NCBI GenBank assembly: GCA_963835575.1
Contig: CAWIGG010000004.1
Coordinates: 256,001 to 320,000, forward strand
From: an uncultured Spirochaetota bacterium
GTDB lineage: Bacteria; Spirochaetota; Brevinematia; Brevinematales; JAOACQ01
DNA: 64,000 bases
Direction: 5' to 3'
Shown: piece by piece, positions 13,483-57,781 of the stretch
How positions within the stretch are numbered: position 1 is the first letter of the stretch
Layout of the letters: each line of letters begins with the position of its first letter
Position numbers and translations under genes: made by a program
Notes under the pieces: model-generated
The model's input: the letters and a program-made list of their open reading frames with translations, nothing else
The model's database searches: none
Told to the model about the DNA's origin: nothing

Positions 13483-13619
13483 TCCGCTAATTCACGCGAA
13501 TTGGATCAAATAAAATGAAAATCCGCCGATGCATGCTAAACGCCAAGAAACAAGAATTGAAATAAGGGTAGAATAATAATAAAACATTTTATTAGCGTTC
13601 ATTCGCGTGGCTTCGCGGA
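13483..13619. repeat. Short non-coding element with ~35-bp imperfect terminal inverted repeats (MITE/REP-like)
   Basis: Left arm TCCGCTAATTCACGCGAAT...AATAAAATG (13483-13517). Right arm CATTTTATT...ATTCGCGTGGCTTCGCGGA (13585-13619). Outer 19 bp match 16/19 and inner 9 bp match 9/9. Confidence 0.7.
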
Positions 13620-49720: not shown

Positions 49721-52207
49721 TCAGAACCTGCTCGAAAAGAAACTCTCCGCTTCGCGGATGATCTGTTTTAAACTTCCGCTGATCAATTTTGCCGGCGGCA
49801 GGGAATTAAGAAAGATCGGCCCGTAGCGCTTTGTTTTAATGCGGTGGTCCATTATGGCGATCACGCCCTTGTCGGTCTTGCTGCGGATGAGCCGGCCCAT
49901 TCCCTGCTTCAGCCGCAAGACGGCCCTCGGGACGCTGTAATTGATAAAGGGGTTCATGTCCTTGAACTCCAGCAGATTGACCTTGGCCTTATAGATCGGA
50001 TCGGCCGGCGAGTCGAAAGGCAGTTTTTCGATGATGACGCAGCGGAGATTGTCGCCCTGGATATCGATCCCTTCCCAGAAGCTGGACGTGGCGAAAAGGA
50101 CCACATTGGGATTTTTGCTCATCTTTGAAAGAAGCTCGTCCCTTGGAAAATCGCCCTGCTTGAGCGGGAGCAGCCCTTCATCGCTCAATTCCCCGTTTAA
50201 AATCTCGAATGTTTTATTCAGCCGGACATAGGATGTGAAGAGGATCAGAACGCCGCCCTCGCTCATCAGGGACAGCTCTTTGATCAATAGGGTTTTTTCC
50301 TCCGTGACACTGCCATGGTCCAGGTCTTCCTCGAGGATATAAATTTCCGCCTGCTTTGTATAATCAAACGGGGAAAGAAGCCGGACCTCAATTTTCTCCT
50401 TGTTGGTCGCGAGCTGCAGCCCGACGCTGGTTTTAAAATAATCGAACTTATTATTGATCATCAGAGTGGCGGACGTAAAGACAGTAAAATCCTTTCTTGA
50501 GAAAAGGGAATTGGCCAGAAAATCGCCTACTTCCAGCGGGCTGTAATGAAACCGGATATTTTTCTTTGTCAGCTCTATCCACTTGACAAAATTGATCTCA
50601 TTCTCTGTATTAAAGATCAGGTCATACACTTCCCGGGCGTTCACAAGGCTTTTCATCCGGTAGCCGATGGACTGGATCACTTCCAGCGCCTCATGATGGA
50701 CCGCAACATCCTTCAGCCTTCCCGCGAACTGCTCAAAATGCGTCGTAAAATGTCCGATCTGCTTGAAAAGCAAGGAAGCCGCGTCAGATAACGCCTCATA
50801 GGCCGGGCTTTTTATAAACTCCTCATCCAGGCCGACCGAATTGGATTCCTTCGTCCATTCTTTTAAAAGCTCCACCGCGTCAAACATAAAATCCGCCAGC
50901 GCATGAAGCAGGTCCTTATGCATCTTTAAAAGCTCCTCATAAGCCTGCGCCAGTTCCACATGGGCATCTATATTCCCTTTCCTGTTCAAAAGGACAAACA
51001 GGCCGTACCCTTTCCCTTTTTTTAATGTGTAGAGTTTTCTGAGCTGATAGAGAAGCGACTGGATGGAAAAATCCTTGGAGAGGGATTTCAGCGCCACATC
51101 CTCCAGGTGATGCGCCTCGTCAAAAACGATGCCGGAAAAAAAGGGGAGCATGCTCCGATGGCTTGCTTCATCGATCATGCTGAAGACAAGGGAATGGTTG
51201 ACAATGACGATGTTGGACTTTTCAGCCTGAAGCCTCGCCCGGTAATAAAAACAATCCCCGTAGTACTGGCATTTTCTGCGGCTGCAGATGATCGAATCGC
51301 AGGCCACTTCCTCCCAGACTTCATCGCTGACATAGCTTCCGAATTCGCCGATCGTTCCTTCCTGGCAGGTGCCGCTCCATTCCTCGATATCAAAAATAAT
51401 CCGCCAGTGCTCATCCTCGCCGAAAAGCGTGTCCTGCTTTTCCTTGTCTCTGATGAGGTCCTGAATCTTCTTTTTACAGAGATAATTTCCCTTTCCGATC
51501 AGCACGGAATAGTGAACATCTTTTTTCAGGTATTGATAGACAACCTTCTCCACAATGAGCATGTCCTTTCCGGCTATCTGCTGCTGAAGATTGATCGTCT
51601 GCGTGGAAACGATCACTCTCTTTTTATTCTCAACGGCCCAGATGGCCGCCGGAATAAGATAGGAAAGCGACTTGCCGGTCCCTGTGCCGGCTTCAGAAAT
51701 AAGAATATCCGATTCATTCACCGCTTCAATTACTCCCGACACAAGCTTGATCTGTTCCTCACGCGGCTCAAAATAGGCGATATTTTTGGAAAGGAGCCCG
51801 TCCTCCTCGAAAATATTTTTTATTTCCTCATCCTTGATATAAACGCGCGCCTCTGGCTTGAATACGATGTTGACATACTTGCACTGATTATCGATGATGT
51901 AAAAGCCGATCTTTTTATTGGCCAGTTCCGTGGCCAGCTGGATGTCGTTTTCAGAGGCCCTGAGGTTGTCGCCGTCGCTGTCGTCGCCCGGGTGGTTATG
52001 GATCAGGACATCCCCCTGCAGGGTGTCCATCAGAATGACCGGGGTCGAATTCTCATTGCCGTAGGCAAGCGGCTCGACCTCATAAACGGCGCCGGACCTG
52101 TCGACATTCCCGACAAACGAGACTTCCTGTCCGGCGTTTTTTTCAATCTCGCCGGCGATATAGTCAATCGCTTCAGGCGTAAAGCATTCTACGGCAAGCT
52201 TTTTCAA
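49721..52207 (-). CDS. DinG/YoaA-family Fe-S helicase with an N-terminal JAB/MPN-like domain
   Basis: N-terminal QEV...HNHPG...ASEND; EAGTGTGKS; Cys cluster; DEAH; SATL; FWEGID; QGMGRLIRS. Confidence 0.9.
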   Translation of the reverse strand: MKKLAVECFTPEAIDYIAGEIEKNAGQEVSFVGNVDRSGAVYEVEPLAYGNENSTPVILMDTLQGDVLIHNHPGDDSDGDNLRASENDIQLATELANKKIGFYIIDNQCKYVNIVFKPEARVYIKDEEIKNIFEEDGLLSKNIAYFEPREEQIKLVSGVIEAVNESDILISEAGTGTGKSLSYLIPAAIWAVENKKRVIVSTQTINLQQQIAGKDMLIVEKVVYQYLKKDVHYSVLIGKGNYLCKKKIQDLIRDKEKQDTLFGEDEHWRIIFDIEEWSGTCQEGTIGEFGSYVSDEVWEEVACDSIICSRRKCQYYGDCFYYRARLQAEKSNIVIVNHSLVFSMIDEASHRSMLPFFSGIVFDEAHHLEDVALKSLSKDFSIQSLLYQLRKLYTLKKGKGYGLFVLLNRKGNIDAHVELAQAYEELLKMHKDLLHALADFMFDAVELLKEWTKESNSVGLDEEFIKSPAYEALSDAASLLFKQIGHFTTHFEQFAGRLKDVAVHHEALEVIQSIGYRMKSLVNAREVYDLIFNTENEINFVKWIELTKKNIRFHYSPLEVGDFLANSLFSRKDFTVFTSATLMINNKFDYFKTSVGLQLATNKEKIEVRLLSPFDYTKQAEIYILEEDLDHGSVTEEKTLLIKELSLMSEGGVLILFTSYVRLNKTFEILNGELSDEGLLPLKQGDFPRDELLSKMSKNPNVVLFATSSFWEGIDIQGDNLRCVIIEKLPFDSPADPIYKAKVNLLEFKDMNPFINYSVPRAVLRLKQGMGRLIRSKTDKGVIAIMDHRIKTKRYGPIFLNSLPPAKLISGSLKQIIREAESFFSSRF

Positions 52208-52300
52208 TTATGGCTCCTATGGGATAGATGTTCTTGAAATGCTGTTTATATTATAAAGGATTTCGTTTGGATTTGCACTATTTGTAATAGCCCAATTAAG

Positions 52301-52508
52301 CAGGATCAGCAGGATAACGCAGGATTTTCAGGATTTTATAATTCCTTTATGTAATATCCGATTGTTCACGCGGATGACACGGATAAGTCGGATTTTATAG
52401 GATTTAGTTTTACTTTTAGGAACCTTATTGCTTTTACTCAATTTACGGAATTTAATAGGACACTCGGGGACGGGGATTTTAGGGTGGCTACGCCAGTTAT
52501 ACAAAAAG
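52301..52508 (+). repeat. Left repeat complex: (CAGGAT-N3/4)x4, block A (52365-52461) and block B (52480-52508)
   Basis: CAGGATCAG CAGGATAACG CAGGATTTT CAGGATTTT. Blocks A and B each have an inverted counterpart at 54971-55151. Confidence 0.75.
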
Positions 52509-52509
52509 C

Positions 52510-52565
52510 GTCATTGCGAGTCAAAAAACCCGAACAATGCCAATATTTGTCATACGAAGCAATCT
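52510..52565 (+). repeat. Degenerate GTCATTGCGAG...CGAAGCAATCT REP-like element
   Basis: GTCATTGCGAG (52510) and CGAAGCAATCT (52555) recall a widespread bacterial palindromic repeat. The second arm is not clearly retained. Confidence 0.45.
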
Positions 52566-52740
52566 GTCTGCAAATTAATGATTCTAAATTCATTGGCAAG
52601 ATTTCGCCTGCGAACAAATGGTTGAGCAGAGAGTATGACTCTTAAAATACAGCTTTCCTTTTTTTTCCCTGTCTGGCATAAGATTCCTTTCTTATTTTGA
52701 AAATATTATTTTTTTATCCGACAGGCTGCCGGGGGGGTTA

Positions 52741-53032
52741 CGATATTTCTTTCTTTTCGAAAAGAAAGAAATATCGCGCTAAAGAAAGAAAACAGGTCGA
52801 GGCCATTTTCATTCGAAGCAGCCGGAATGTACGGAGGTGTGTCATCCGGCTTTTAAAAAACCAATTCCTTATTAAAATAGCCTCCTATGTCGCCGTCCAA
52901 TGGCTTTATGCGTCGGTTGCGGCTTCCGTGCCGCAAGCTTGTGCTTCTTTTCATTTATTATAACAGCGGATAACACGACTTGATATGGAGTTGATTGGTA
53001 TTCTGATTAAAGTCAGGAGGAAAATGGCCTCG
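52741..53032. repeat. Structured non-coding element: 36-bp perfect palindrome plus a ~235-nt nested fold-back
   Basis: CGATATTTCTTTCTTTTC|GAAAAGAAAGAAATATCG (52741-52776). 13-bp IR CGAGGCCATTTTC (52798) / GAAAATGGCCTCG (53020-53032). Internal hairpins AGCCGGA/TCCGGCT and TTGCGGC/GCCGCAA. Confidence 0.7.
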
Positions 53033-53059
53033 GGAAAGGAAAAAAACTAATTGCTATTA

Positions 53060-54952
53060 TTAAACTCCATGTCGTGAATAATCAGGTTTGAATCTAAATA
53101 ATAAATATAATTCTTCAGGAGTATAAATTTTAAGGATAAAAACTCCATATAATAGATATAAATGTAATTCTGATTTTTCTAAAAGTTTCATTATATATTC
53201 AGTTATCTCAAATGAATATGATATAAAACTCTCTTTTTTATAAATTTCATTTGAATTATAATACTCTCGACCAACATACATTATACCAACAAGCAACGCT
53301 AAAAATTCTTTTTTCTGTAATCTAAGATAACTTATAAAATTATTTTTTATTTTTCTAGATTCTAATAAATAGTCTGAACTCAAATTTGATAACTCTATAC
53401 CAGTTCCAAGATTATATTTTTTATGTAGTATATTTCTATCAGATTTCAATTTTATTGCAAGATTTATTGTATTATATATTATTTTATTCTCATCGGATAA
53501 TGAACTTAAGAGTAACTTTCTATTATTTTTCATCTCAATATCTTTATTTTCTTTAATAATTTTCCTAACATTTTTATAAATATAGTTTCTAAATTCATTT
53601 GTATTCATTTTATTATGTCGCCCATCATACGTTGATGCGTCCTTATTATAAAGAGATTGTTTTGCAAATATTACTAAAGCACCTTTTTGTATTCTACTGA
53701 CCAATCTTGCTCCTTTTGGCAAGGGACCATCATAATAATAACCCGAATCCCAAACTGATCTATCTACATATTCATTTGGTTTAATTTCTGTTAATTCTTC
53801 AATTATACTTTCATAGATAATTGCTTTAATGGGTTTAGTTTCTATTCTTAAATAGTTCCATTCTGGCACATAATGAAAATTTTCATAGATCAATCTTTTT
53901 GGTTTTATGATATAACAAGAACCATTTAAATCTAAATCAAGGCAGCCAGGTTCATTAGATTTTTTAACTCCTATTAAATCTAGTCCACCACCTCTTGGTA
54001 AAAATAGATGATTTAAATTTTCTGTTTCACATAGAAATGATAAAATAGATATTATATCATCTATATTATTCCAAACCATACGTGCCGGTTTATTAATTTT
54101 ATGTACATGGTCATCAAAATAATTCCATTGCAATATATTCTGAATGCTGAAATCTTTTGAGGCGGTTAGCCACTCTTCAATTTTATTAATGAATATATTC
54201 ATTGTTGGTCTTAATGATGGATTTTCATTTGTACAATCACGTAATAAATTATCTATTGGGAAAAGAAAATCATTTTTTATAAATCTTTTTAATGAAATAT
54301 TTTCATCTGAAGCATCATACCTACCATCAAAACCATCATAAACATTTGTTAACAATATCCAGAATGTTTTTGATAATGAATATACGTCAGCTAATCTACC
54401 ATCGGAATTTTGAGGTGATCTCCTCATTTCTGGAGCAATAGTCCATATTGGCCCTAATTTTTTTTCTTTTGTTATCTTAGATTTATGAGGAAAATCTACT
54501 AAACCAAAATCACCAATACACCAATTATTATTATAATAATATAAATTTTCAGGCTTTATATCTCTATGAGAAATTCCAATATTATGAAAATATATTAAAA
54601 CTTTTGCTATACTAAGAATAGCTTTTGCTATTTCATAAATATCAGTTTTGCTAATTTTTTCAATGATGGGCGTCGCAATTGGCATTACATACCAATAAGG
54701 AATGTCTTTAGTTGATGCTTGAAGAAAAGAATCTAATATAGGAATTATACCTATAAGATTATTATTATCTTTTACAGTTTGAATTTCATATTTAAATCTC
54801 TTAAATAAAATATTATTTTTAATAAAAATATTTTTTAATATCTTCATTGCATATTCTTGCTGATTTTGATCTTTTACTTTCCAAACTTCTGAATTTCCCC
54901 CAAAACCAAGTTTTTCAATTAATGTATATTTATCAATTTTTTTAATTTTCAT
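53060..54952 (-). CDS. Hanks-type Ser/Thr protein kinase, very AT-rich, Stk2-like, with a long C-terminal region
   Basis: LGFGGNSEVW, AMK, HRDIKPEN, DFG, APE, DVYSL. No TM or PASTA domains. GC about 20-25% by eye versus much higher flanks. Confidence 0.88.
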   Translation of the reverse strand: MKIKKIDKYTLIEKLGFGGNSEVWKVKDQNQQEYAMKILKNIFIKNNILFKRFKYEIQTVKDNNNLIGIIPILDSFLQASTKDIPYWYVMPIATPIIEKISKTDIYEIAKAILSIAKVLIYFHNIGISHRDIKPENLYYYNNNWCIGDFGLVDFPHKSKITKEKKLGPIWTIAPEMRRSPQNSDGRLADVYSLSKTFWILLTNVYDGFDGRYDASDENISLKRFIKNDFLFPIDNLLRDCTNENPSLRPTMNIFINKIEEWLTASKDFSIQNILQWNYFDDHVHKINKPARMVWNNIDDIISILSFLCETENLNHLFLPRGGGLDLIGVKKSNEPGCLDLDLNGSCYIIKPKRLIYENFHYVPEWNYLRIETKPIKAIIYESIIEELTEIKPNEYVDRSVWDSGYYYDGPLPKGARLVSRIQKGALVIFAKQSLYNKDASTYDGRHNKMNTNEFRNYIYKNVRKIIKENKDIEMKNNRKLLLSSLSDENKIIYNTINLAIKLKSDRNILHKKYNLGTGIELSNLSSDYLLESRKIKNNFISYLRLQKKEFLALLVGIMYVGREYYNSNEIYKKESFISYSFEITEYIMKLLEKSELHLYLLYGVFILKIYTPEELYLLFRFKPDYSRHGV

Positions 54953-54970
54953 TAAAAACCTTCCACTCTC

Positions 54971-55191
54971 GTCCTATTTTATTCCCGGCATCGAGTATTA
55001 GAATAAGGCAGCTCAATGTAAAACTAAATCCTAAAAATCTGTCCCAATCCGTGAAATCTGTGTGAAATTGGGGTCTATAAATAAGCTTTAATAAAGTAAA
55101 CAAAGGATTGTGAGTCAGAATTTTATGTATTACCGGCGTAGCCCGCACCCTATTCGCGTATCTTCGCGTATCTTCGCGTATCTTCGCGGAA
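54971..55191 (-). repeat. Right repeat complex: inverted block A (54971-55066), inverted block B (55121-55151) and (TTCGCGTATC)x3
   Basis: The reverse complement TTCACACAGATTTCACGGATTGGGACAGATTTTTAGGATTTAGTTTTAC...CCTTATT...ACTC...GGAAT..AATAGGAC aligns with 52365-52461. 10-mer tandem at 55153-55191. Confidence 0.78.
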
Positions 55192-55204
55192 GCCCAGTCC
55201 TGCC

Positions 55205-57781
55205 TTAAACCGGCTTCTCCTGCCTATTCATGAAGTTATTCAATTCTTCCGCCCCGAACAACACCTCCCGCGGCTTGCTGGAGCCTGTCGACGGGCCAAG
55301 GGCCCCCATTTTATCCATCGCCTCGATCAGCCTGGAAGCGCGGTTGTAGCCGATGCGGAAGCGGCGCTGGAGGGACGAAGCCGAAATCTCGCCGTTTTCC
55401 ACGGCCGCCTTGAGCGACTCGATAAAGAGCGGGTCGTCGCGGTAATCGACTGAAAAAGCCGAATCCGTTTCCGAGGCGGGGCTTGCCATCAGGCCCTCGA
55501 CATCGATCACATAATCCGCCTTTCCGTTCCTCTTGAGGTCTTTTACAAGATTTTCGATGTCCGAATTGGAAACATAGGGCGACTGAATGCGGAGCATATC
55601 GATAAAATTCGGCGTCATAAAAAGCATGTCTCCCTTTCCCAGGAGCTTTTCCGCCCCGCTTTTATCCAGAATGGTACGGGAATCCGTCTGCGAGCTGACG
55701 CGGAACGCGATGCGGGAAGGGAAGTTCGCCTTGATGATCCCGGTAACGACATCCACGCTCGGCCGCTGTGTCGCCACAACCAGATGGATGCCCACGGCCC
55801 TGGCCATCGCCGCTATGCGGGATATGACCTTTTCCGTTTCCTTCGGAAGCCGGAGCATCAGGTTCGCGAACTCATCTATCACGATAACAATATAGGGAAA
55901 GTATTCATAGGTTTTTTCGGCGTCATCCCTGGCGGCGGTTTTGATCTTTTTAACCTCGCGGTTATAATCGTCCATGTTGCGCACGCCGAAATCGCTGAGC
56001 ATCTTGTATCTTTTATCCATTTCGGCGGACGTCCATTCCAGCACGGCAATGGCCTCTTCCGGGCTGGTTATGACCGGCGCCAGCAGGTGCGGAATGCCGT
56101 TGTAAAGCTCCAGCTCCACCATTTTGGGATCGATAAAAATAAACTTCACCTCTTCGGCTGTCTTTTTGAATGTCAGGCCGCCGATCAGGGAATTGACATA
56201 AACGCTTTTTCCGCTGCCGGTCGTACCGGCGATCAAAAGATGCGGCATTTCCGTCAGGTCTTCAATCACGATATTGCCAGCTATATCCTTCCCGAGGATG
56301 AGCGGAAGCTTCGCCTTTGTTTTTTTATATTCTTCGCTTTCTATGATCTCGCGGAGGACAACCGTTCTCCTGAATTTGTTGGGCACTTCCACGCCGACGA
56401 TGCTTTTGTTGCCGATCGGCGCGACAATGCGGATGTTGCGCGTGCCGAGGTTCAGCGCCAGGTCGTCCGTCAGGTTCACGATATTTTTGAGCTTCAATCC
56501 TGTGGGGGGAATTATTTCATAACGGGTGATGGCCGGCCCTCTCGAGTGACCGGAGACCCTGACGTCAATTTTAAAGCTCGCAAACGTATTCTCAATGATC
56601 TTGGAGACCCTGTCGATCTCCTCGTTCTCCTCCGCGCGGGAAAAGCTTTCAAGCCCTTTTTCCAGAATATTCAAATCCGGAAAAACATAATCCGGATGGG
56701 TTTCTTTTTCAGTAAAAAGCTCCTGTTCAATGTCTTCCCTGCTCCGCCTGGACTGCGCCAGCTCGGCGTAATCAGCCTCGCCGACAATCTCTTCTATTTC
56801 CAGACCGTTCGATTCGTTCAATAACTCAGGTTCCGGTTTTTCTTTTTGAATGATTATCTCCTCTTCCGGCTTTTTTTCACTCACTTCCTCTACAGGAATT
56901 TCTTTATCCATAATAGAAATATTAGCTGCAGAAATGGCTTTCTCACCCTCTCCCAGCTCCTGATCAAAAAATTGATTGATTTCTGATAAAATATCCCCGG
57001 CGGCCTTTTTCTCTATAAGCCACAGCGGCGCTTTCTGCGCTTCCCGGGACAGCGAAGCGACATCGACAAATTCCCTGCCCTCATCTTTCCGCGGAGTATG
57101 GTGGAGATACTCCGGCTCCTTCCGCTCCGCCCATTTTTCTTCCTTTTCCATATTCCGGCCCGGATGATCTTGGGTATTCCGGCCTTCCCCCTGATAAGCG
57201 AAGACTTCCCTTCCGCTGACAGGCTCTTCTTTTGTTTTTGCCAGAAGGCCGAACATCTGGAAAGGCGCGAGTACAATCCATCCCAGAAGCCTGGCCAGTC
57301 CGTAAGTCATCTGCTGGAAGAGCTTCATGGCTGAAACCAGGGAAAGCAGTAAAATAAGGGAAAATATGCCGATTATGATATAGGGATGCAGAACTTCCTG
57401 AAGGCTTTTGGAAATGGCAAGGCCGAAAAGTCCAGATTCTATATAGGTTGCCGCGGGCATGAGGACTGCCAGTATGACAGACAGGCAGATTGTCGCGATA
57501 ATGAACAGGGTTGCTTTTATAAAAATCCTTCCGATTTTCGCGCCGACCAGAAAATTGATCCCGATGACAAAAAAACCGAAATTAAGGGCCAGAGAACCGT
57601 ATTTTCCATACAAGAGGACCAGGGGGGAAGAAATCCAGACTCCCAGGATCCCGGCCATATTTTCAAGAGGCTGGTTGACCTTTGACGCAAGAAAGGCCGA
57701 ATCCATAGGATTAAAACTGAGGAGCGCAATCAGTAATACCGCGGAAAAGGCAATCAATGTATAGCCCAGAATAATTCTCAT
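55205..57781 (-). CDS. ftsK: DNA translocase FtsK
   Basis: N-terminal TMs, acidic linker, PHLLIAGTTGSGKS, IDPKMVEL, VIDEFA, ATQRPSVDV, gamma domain LQRRFRIGYNRA. Confidence 0.96.
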   Translation of the reverse strand: MRIILGYTLIAFSAVLLIALLSFNPMDSAFLASKVNQPLENMAGILGVWISSPLVLLYGKYGSLALNFGFFVIGINFLVGAKIGRIFIKATLFIIATICLSVILAVLMPAATYIESGLFGLAISKSLQEVLHPYIIIGIFSLILLLSLVSAMKLFQQMTYGLARLLGWIVLAPFQMFGLLAKTKEEPVSGREVFAYQGEGRNTQDHPGRNMEKEEKWAERKEPEYLHHTPRKDEGREFVDVASLSREAQKAPLWLIEKKAAGDILSEINQFFDQELGEGEKAISAANISIMDKEIPVEEVSEKKPEEEIIIQKEKPEPELLNESNGLEIEEIVGEADYAELAQSRRSREDIEQELFTEKETHPDYVFPDLNILEKGLESFSRAEENEEIDRVSKIIENTFASFKIDVRVSGHSRGPAITRYEIIPPTGLKLKNIVNLTDDLALNLGTRNIRIVAPIGNKSIVGVEVPNKFRRTVVLREIIESEEYKKTKAKLPLILGKDIAGNIVIEDLTEMPHLLIAGTTGSGKSVYVNSLIGGLTFKKTAEEVKFIFIDPKMVELELYNGIPHLLAPVITSPEEAIAVLEWTSAEMDKRYKMLSDFGVRNMDDYNREVKKIKTAARDDAEKTYEYFPYIVIVIDEFANLMLRLPKETEKVISRIAAMARAVGIHLVVATQRPSVDVVTGIIKANFPSRIAFRVSSQTDSRTILDKSGAEKLLGKGDMLFMTPNFIDMLRIQSPYVSNSDIENLVKDLKRNGKADYVIDVEGLMASPASETDSAFSVDYRDDPLFIESLKAAVENGEISASSLQRRFRIGYNRASRLIEAMDKMGALGPSTGSSKPREVLFGAEELNNFMNRQEKPV

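Follow-up and report, generated by a model that had tools for sequence, protein, structure and literature searches.

Inward-facing word-array arms bracket foreign genes in a Brevinematales genome and suggest a route of gene capture without a transposase

Composite elements bracketed by miniature inverted-repeat transposable elements (MITEs) carry passenger genes, and in integron cassettes and pdif modules genes lie between directly repeated sites. In this work we set such systems beside a locus of an uncultured Spirochaetota bacterium, where the gene for a Hanks-type Ser/Thr kinase stands between ftsK and dinG, bracketed by inward-facing arms that carry arrays of 9-10-nt words. Coordinates such as 52365..55066 count within the window, the whole 64,000-nt stretch analysed (C4:256001-320000 of the genome, here called G000); G002 denotes a congener, G008 a relative, and L-numbers the loci examined. 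REP/REPIN-RAYT systems (REPtrons and TIRtrons; PMC3733652 and PMC6006769, the latter setting out classes of TnpA-REP) are organised alike: an enzyme gene lies within inverted repeats, the same repeats form hundreds of intergenic non-coding doublets, and one genome can have several families of repeat, each paired with a gene copy of its own. MITEs (as defined in PMC3733652) and the composites that they bracket share with our locus non-coding inverted ends around foreign genes and the lack of an enzyme, and the open reading frame (ORF)-carrying intervening sequences (IVS) of 23S rRNA (S23p or four-helix bundle; PMC4990558) hold a horizontally acquired ORF inside inverted repeats, which can pair as a stem in the transcript. 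Arrays of a TAACTGA heptamer, with no mechanism evident, are described in PMC4679880. No title or abstract found in our literature search, which did not cover subscription papers, describes the repeats treated here, and the term 'GxxExxY' surfaced only in works on other subjects; the element family was not found in print. Here we demonstrate that inward arms of this kind enclose foreign genes with a strong, measurable bias genome-wide, and that the element occurs in three states: with a nuclease gene inside, empty, or with foreign genes inside.

Judged from its sequence and setting, the kinase gene (53060..54952, minus strand) is a foreign gene inserted between ftsK (55205..57781, minus) and the gene of a dinG-type helicase (49721..52207, minus), because its GC content is low (24.9%, GC3 0.14, against 49.2% for dinG and 50.6% for ftsK), the gap is nearly empty in most relatives examined, the family is rare in the phylum (2 of 401 genomes), and the closest homologues, 34-44% identical, bear names from several phyla. 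The ftsK-to-dinG gap measures 2997 bp in G000 and 15-38 bp in nine of the 14 relatives examined, all four congeners among these, while a single small or host-like gene occupies it in four more; word arrays were found in the gap of none of the 14. The insert begins about 10 bp past the ftsK stop and leaves whole the dinG ribosome-binding site, which is common to the congeners and lies just to its left. No transposase or recombinase was found among the ORFs and domain matches inside the bracket, and none of the 23 tyrosine recombinase matches in the genome falls in the window. A preliminary description, made from the sequence alone, had noted two of these features of the locus: a gene far richer in AT than its neighbours, and no adjacent transposase, integrase or resolvase. 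No relative examined carries the kinase at this site without the repeats. DNA reads from one run (contigs at a depth of 2-4, too thin to weigh) gave no excision joint; they cover the kinase and the right arm in part, with an identity of 99-100%.

The kinase itself is intact, with 630 residues, a Pkinase domain at residues 9-252 and all the catalytic motifs (GxGG, AxK, HRDxKxxN, DFG, APE), followed by a conserved region at residues ~285-460 and a helical tail. Its structure model (pLDDT 88) has PknB as best fold match (Z 23.5, root-mean-square deviation 3.4 over 241 residues), and its C-terminal part has no match in Pfam, the PADLOC models or Atlas. As a lone AT-rich Hanks kinase it resembles the defence kinases Stk2 and PD-T4-6, whose PADLOC models it matches, but over the generic kinase domain alone (residues ~6-266). 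A genome scan for the kinase returned 79 loci, one of them well covered beyond the kinase domain.

Each copy of the repeat that brackets the kinase, block A, is one module within a longer arm. The two copies, 52365..52461 (plus) and 54971..55066 (minus), both point inward and are 74.5% identical over 98 columns (blastn E 2.5e-8 against the genome), with an exact 16-mer in common, so that the inverted repeats of ~95 bp and the shared exact word of the preliminary description are real; the period of 9-10 nt that it ascribed to the repeats is confined to their first ~40 nt, where four xGAT words follow one another at spacings of 9, 9 and 10 nt on the left and 9, 10 and 9 nt on the right. Beyond this four-word head block A, which ends in a lineage-specific 55-nt tail, is not periodic. 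The right copy stops, as had been described, 18 bp ahead of the kinase ATG at 54952; the purine-rich linker between them (54953..54970, minus) carries a Shine-Dalgarno-like GGAAGG and may derive from the arm. The further suggestion that this copy supplies the leader did not hold up, nor did an arm-borne promoter, for which one site was found per arm, at chance level, against 2.5 and 0.9 expected. Read from the outside, the left arm has the order C-A-(decayed B) and the right arm the order CGCGAA array-B-A. Module C on the left (52291..52364, plus) is a CAGGAT word array with an AT-rich tail closing in a TCCGATT anchor, and the decayed start of module B (52481..52508, plus) retains the GGCTACGCC motif (E 2e-5 on a 540-nt slice). 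On the right, module B (55067..55150, minus; 53 copies in the genome) runs from GGCTACGCC to a GACCCCAAT anchor, and the outermost CGCGAA word array (55163..55195, minus) begins about 10 bp after the ftsK stop. The closest match to the right block A together with its module B lies at C2:100808-100987 (79% over 182 nt) rather than in the left copy.

This CGCGAA array belongs to a family that flanks three GxxExxY genes of G000, and by their sequence the kinase arms as a whole fall in the class of word arrays that brackets such genes, a resemblance to which the preliminary description had also pointed. G000 has six full-length GxxExxY ORFs of 123-134 aa with a D...ExK motif, all three proteins tested match Pfam PDDEXK_3, and inward arrays, read by eye, flank all nine GxxExxY loci of the genome; the kinase locus shares this trait of inward 9-10-nt arrays at both ends. 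Heads of three such words number 404 in G000 against 7-12 in controls, and 376 of them are intergenic. Short head pairs (<300 bp) face inward in 81 cases and outward in eight, and 68 of the 81 inward doublets are matched by word family against a shuffle mean of 25.6; simple doublets are empty in 93 of 104 cases. Across 30 relatives, whose kinship makes them non-independent, all ten GxxExxY-positive genomes have at least 16 heads, while 16 of 20 negative ones have at most five. Among five plasmid GxxExxY loci, clear inward word arrays were seen at two and single words at one, the other two being ambiguous, and no GxxExxY relatives were found in viral contigs. A further doublet of the CGCGAA family, empty, lies at 13483-13619 of the window.

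Block A recurs in 80 copies in G000, 38 of them near full length (iterated profile), with a mean identity of 61% and a maximum of 87%. Its matches (blastn, nhmmer) are intergenic, with no single insertion sequence (IS) family consistently adjacent; the block ends in TCCGATT or CCCAAT anchors and faces its partner. The recurring modules A, B and C (the last with 53 copies by a module hidden Markov model) are assembled into arms at two anchors. The block appears confined to this lineage: 34 other genomes of the order gave short matches of 19-55 nt, mostly to the word head, the tail was found in none of the genomes and metagenomes searched outside G000, and 94 pattern matches in metagenomes included no real copy. 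G000 has 29 occurrences of the head pattern, and four of 400 other genomes of the phylum have 1-3 each; no GxxExxY gene lies at the 14 head-pattern loci inspected. At G000:C2:667062-667467 a block-A-type bracket surrounds nested word arrays and a broken 5' remnant of a GIY-YIG gene with three stops.

We measured the polarity of these modules without recourse to annotation, as the GC content 200-1200 nt from each repeat end. In 67 of the 80 block A copies the inner flank is the poorer in GC (binomial p 6e-10), and flanks below 35% GC number 33 inside and one outside, the background being 10.9% of 2152 intergenic flanks. The corresponding counts for module B are 23 inner and no outer flanks of 53, and module C is more weakly polar (lower inside in 43 of 53; 13 inner against three outer flanks below 35% GC). 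Repeat D, a dispersed element, has a slight polarity (10 against 2 of 62), and the control repeat E none (lower inside in 56 of 116; 7 against 5 below 35% GC). Counted by gene, an A, B or C module turns its inner side to 28 of the 159 genes below 30% GC and to 47 of the 1767 host-like ones (odds ratio 7.8, p 5e-13), and its outer side to one of the 159 and 97 of the 1767. Inward brackets shorter than 7 kb with A or B modules (n=40) hold AT-rich cargo in 21 cases, nothing in 15 and host-like genes only in four, whereas outward pairs have AT-rich content in four of 82; the orientation of the cargo is mixed (21 versus 18). Block A thus neither lies in random orientation nor lacks a link to foreign genes. 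The polarity of 48 of 59 seen in 40 regions of relatives is biased and was not counted as a test, because these regions were picked around heads, many of them for looking paired.

Both D and E are also found at the kinase locus, where as separate passengers unrelated to the arms they fill the 600 bp inside the left block A. The palindromic repeat E (52507..52642, no strand assigned; 116 copies) is followed by the hairpin-rich repeat D of ~335 nt (52710..53041, plus; 62 hits, 26 near full length), which ends 19 bp from the kinase stop. Repeat D, for which Rfam has no match, has itself been hit repeatedly: at several loci an IS of 434 aa interrupts it near position 197-204, and in four hits a reverse-transcriptase-like element of 455 aa lies near position 230-232. 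A GIY-YIG gene (C4:1026468) in the region G000:C4:1026200-1027450 stands amid a cluster of repeat E palindromes, as a second enzyme-plus-repeat system. The IS load of G000 is very high, with at least 12 families of 5-33 near-identical copies each.

The contents of the brackets were surveyed by a Pfam scan of 57 of the 62 AT-rich ORFs from 40 chosen G000 loci, about 19 of which are toxin-antitoxin, restriction-modification or otherwise defence-like and 24 without a Pfam hit. The delivery of accessory or defence genes proposed in the preliminary description accords with these cargoes. Among the hits are PIN (3), RHH, YafQ, DUF2442, Panacea, IrrE plus DUF4411, a nucleotidyltransferase, two DNA methylases, GmrSD, Schlafen, a PycC-like cyclase, SEFIR, DUF2971, an AbiTi-like protein and a second kinase; small-molecule methyltransferases, a hydrolase and a cupin occur as well. 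Another bracket holds a type ISP restriction-modification enzyme, and genes near heads in relatives encode an AbiEii-type ATPase, Mrr, AIPR, GmrSD, Fic and BrnT. Loaded brackets at L019, L051, L016, L032 and in the window adjoin xerC/xerD-like genes, ftsK, dnaN, polA and dprA, a post hoc observation that may be due to chance.

In the congener G002, where the left and right arms of the GxxExxY element can be told apart, shells of the element are seen with other genes in place of the nuclease gene. Left-type and right-type arms of the element surround unrelated AT-rich ORFs at L295, L296, L297, L300 and L305, and partial left and right shells surround other genes at L293, L294 and L298; the cargo starts within ~100-200 nt of intact arms, at the place expected for the nuclease ORF. 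Two of these loci, on different contigs and with unrelated flanks, align in register over left arm and cargo (66.5%, 403 nt) and again over the right arm (76.9%, 117 nt), and a third has the same cargo family reversed.

Placed beside the described systems, the arms are organised like REPIN-RAYT elements and fail their defining tests. They share with REPINs the many intergenic inverted doublets, but they consist of tandem 9-10-nt words rather than palindromes tagged GTAG or CGTC, with no hairpin consensus in 25 aligned block A copies; their putative partner gene encodes a PD-(D/E)xK nuclease rather than an HUH Y1 transposase, and their shells often hold unrelated genes. Neither of the two Y1_Tnp matches in G000 is flanked by block A repeats: one is a RAYT-like gene flanked by different palindromes, and the other is inside a restriction-modification protein. 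This 1207-aa protein (G000:C5:408849-412472) has the Y1_Tnp (RAYT-like) domain in frame between short repeated peptides, apparently as an element inserted in frame. Unlike MITEs and their composites, the arms lack near-identical ends, have separate histories and match no IS end seen; no target-site duplication is present at the kinase site or over the 81 doublets, although an old one could have decayed. Differences from the 23S rRNA IVS include the position of the kinase insert between protein genes, a stem only 74% matched and a variable cargo of up to several kb, and block A has no Rfam match. The sole four-helix-bundle (23S IVP) gene of G000 (C6:1990-2620) is flanked by inverted arrays whose words measure 7 and 14 nt, the left side having about ten copies. 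Like integron cassettes and pdif modules, the brackets contain single foreign genes, of defence or toxin-antitoxin type, that lack a mobility gene of their own; unlike them, the gene sits inside one inverted arm pair, and block A ends bear no attC R boxes (RYYYAAC/GTTRRRY). Two other identities considered for block A were set aside, a structured RNA (it has no consensus pairs) and a substrate of adenine-biased variation of the diversity-generating retroelement type (conservation is alike for all four bases).

In our view the arms are likely to form a gene-capture system that works without a transposase. From the observed architecture, polarity and shell replacement we infer every enzymatic step of the following scheme. 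The GxxExxY nuclease would bind the word arrays and cut; single arms would spread through copying or gene conversion, giving arms of several modules; and cargo, which may serve in defence, would enter without a transposase. For the window, we put at about an even chance that the kinase was captured in place, an arm-bounded GxxExxY-type shell resident in the ftsK-dinG gap having been cut, presumably by a GxxExxY nuclease whose gene lies at another locus of the genome, and incoming DNA having served in the repair. A wider proposal is more tentative, and we regard it as possible rather than probable: that a PD-(D/E)xK nuclease of ~125 aa reads arrays of 9-10-nt words, its own hollowed shells serving as scattered capture sites at which single foreign genes of defence or toxin-antitoxin type are loaded, exchanged, turned around and in some cases carried along with the arms. 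Such a system would be a distributed analogue of the integron that uses neither a transposase nor a recombinase, and block A would mark a lineage-specific shell specialised for its cargo.

Several observations weigh against capture by the arms. Insertion by any route into the spacer of an existing doublet would give the same polarity, and recent IS copies lie inside many brackets. No more than 28 of the 159 AT-rich genes adjoin A, B or C arms, gene counts that rest on our own ORF caller, and the share of defence-like functions, counted within the cargo alone, may be no higher than among foreign genes in general. None of the 30 GxxExxY loci scanned has block A, B or C arms, four of the 20 GxxExxY-negative relatives nevertheless have 10-48 heads, and PDDEXK_3 is entered in PMC3424549 as a family of unknown function with multiple transfers. 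Finally, G008 has an unrelated 2.3-kb insert without word arrays in its ftsK-dinG gap, from which it follows that the gap tolerates insertions anyway. Its motifs suggest that this insert (L141, G008:C12:3500-7600) holds a PIN toxin-antitoxin pair and an AT-rich ORF, together with a small nuclease flanked by CCCCTCCC-type hairpins.

The G008 insert would sit well with passive arms, that is, with hollowed GxxExxY elements and nested leftovers that do no more than mark dispensable AT-rich spacers, where foreign genes and IS, arriving by illegitimate recombination or with an IS or phage since lost, are able to survive. So would the IS copies and the repeats D and E inside many brackets, the age and divergence of the arms, and the 131 of 159 AT-rich genes that lie off the inner side of the modules. 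We nonetheless hold passive arms to be somewhat unlikely, given that simple doublets are mostly empty and A/B brackets mostly loaded, that repeat E, although more abundant, is unpolarised, and that cargo in G002 begins close to intact arms, where the nuclease ORF would be expected. The same congener supplies a case for the movement of complete arm-cargo-arm cassettes, cut out or copied and then inserted with help in trans, its two loci being alike in left arm, cargo and right arm and its third having the cargo reversed; the neat placement of the kinase insert, just past the ftsK stop and sparing the dinG ribosome-binding site, could be read in this way too. The preliminary description had proposed a capture or mobilisation cassette of this type, and its link to foreign genes is borne out genome-wide, with a direction; movement as a unit, with block A as terminal inverted repeats, is not, and we judge it improbable.

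Several observations tell against such movement. There is no target duplication, the longest word common to both flanks averaging 4.88 nt over the 81 doublets against 4.86 nt when shuffled (5 nt at the kinase site); the sequence that arm loci have in common gives out within ~270 nt and, IS copies apart, does not reach into the cargo; the closest copy of an arm is not its partner, and over 19 brackets the similarities of left arms do not correlate with those of right arms (rho 0.008); no non-IS cargo protein is among the 40 largest multi-copy clusters listed; and both full-length kinase homologue loci seen (L056, L334) are without word heads. Absent duplications, non-matching partners, shared sequence that stops short of the cargo and armless kinase homologues together suggest that arms spread singly and that cargo arrives in place. 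A role at the level of RNA, in which transcribed arms would pair into a long stem open to cutting by RNase III, the insert being removed or stabilised as in the 23S rRNA intervening sequences and the host operon spared, strikes us as very improbable. The insert does lie within a tight, co-oriented ftsK-dinG gene pair, and the terminal repeats of the Coxiella IVS form a stem cut by RNase III (PMC4990558). The predicted duplex of the block pair is also strong (-82 to -88 kcal/mol against -25 +/- 4 shuffled), but an inverted repeat gives such a duplex as a matter of course. Two partners resemble each other no more than they do other copies, which argues that pairing is not co-maintained, and at 30 of the 81 doublets the neighbouring genes are convergent or divergent.

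Many foreign single genes in bacterial genomes stand without a visible mobility gene. If shells of the kind described here capture such genes, bacteria would be gaining genes by a route not recognised so far, and a directly testable job would fall to the GxxExxY family (Pfam PDDEXK_3), which is uncharacterised. Even without the mechanism, inward arms offer a practical marker for candidate defence genes, among them the 24 of 57 cargo proteins that have no Pfam hit.

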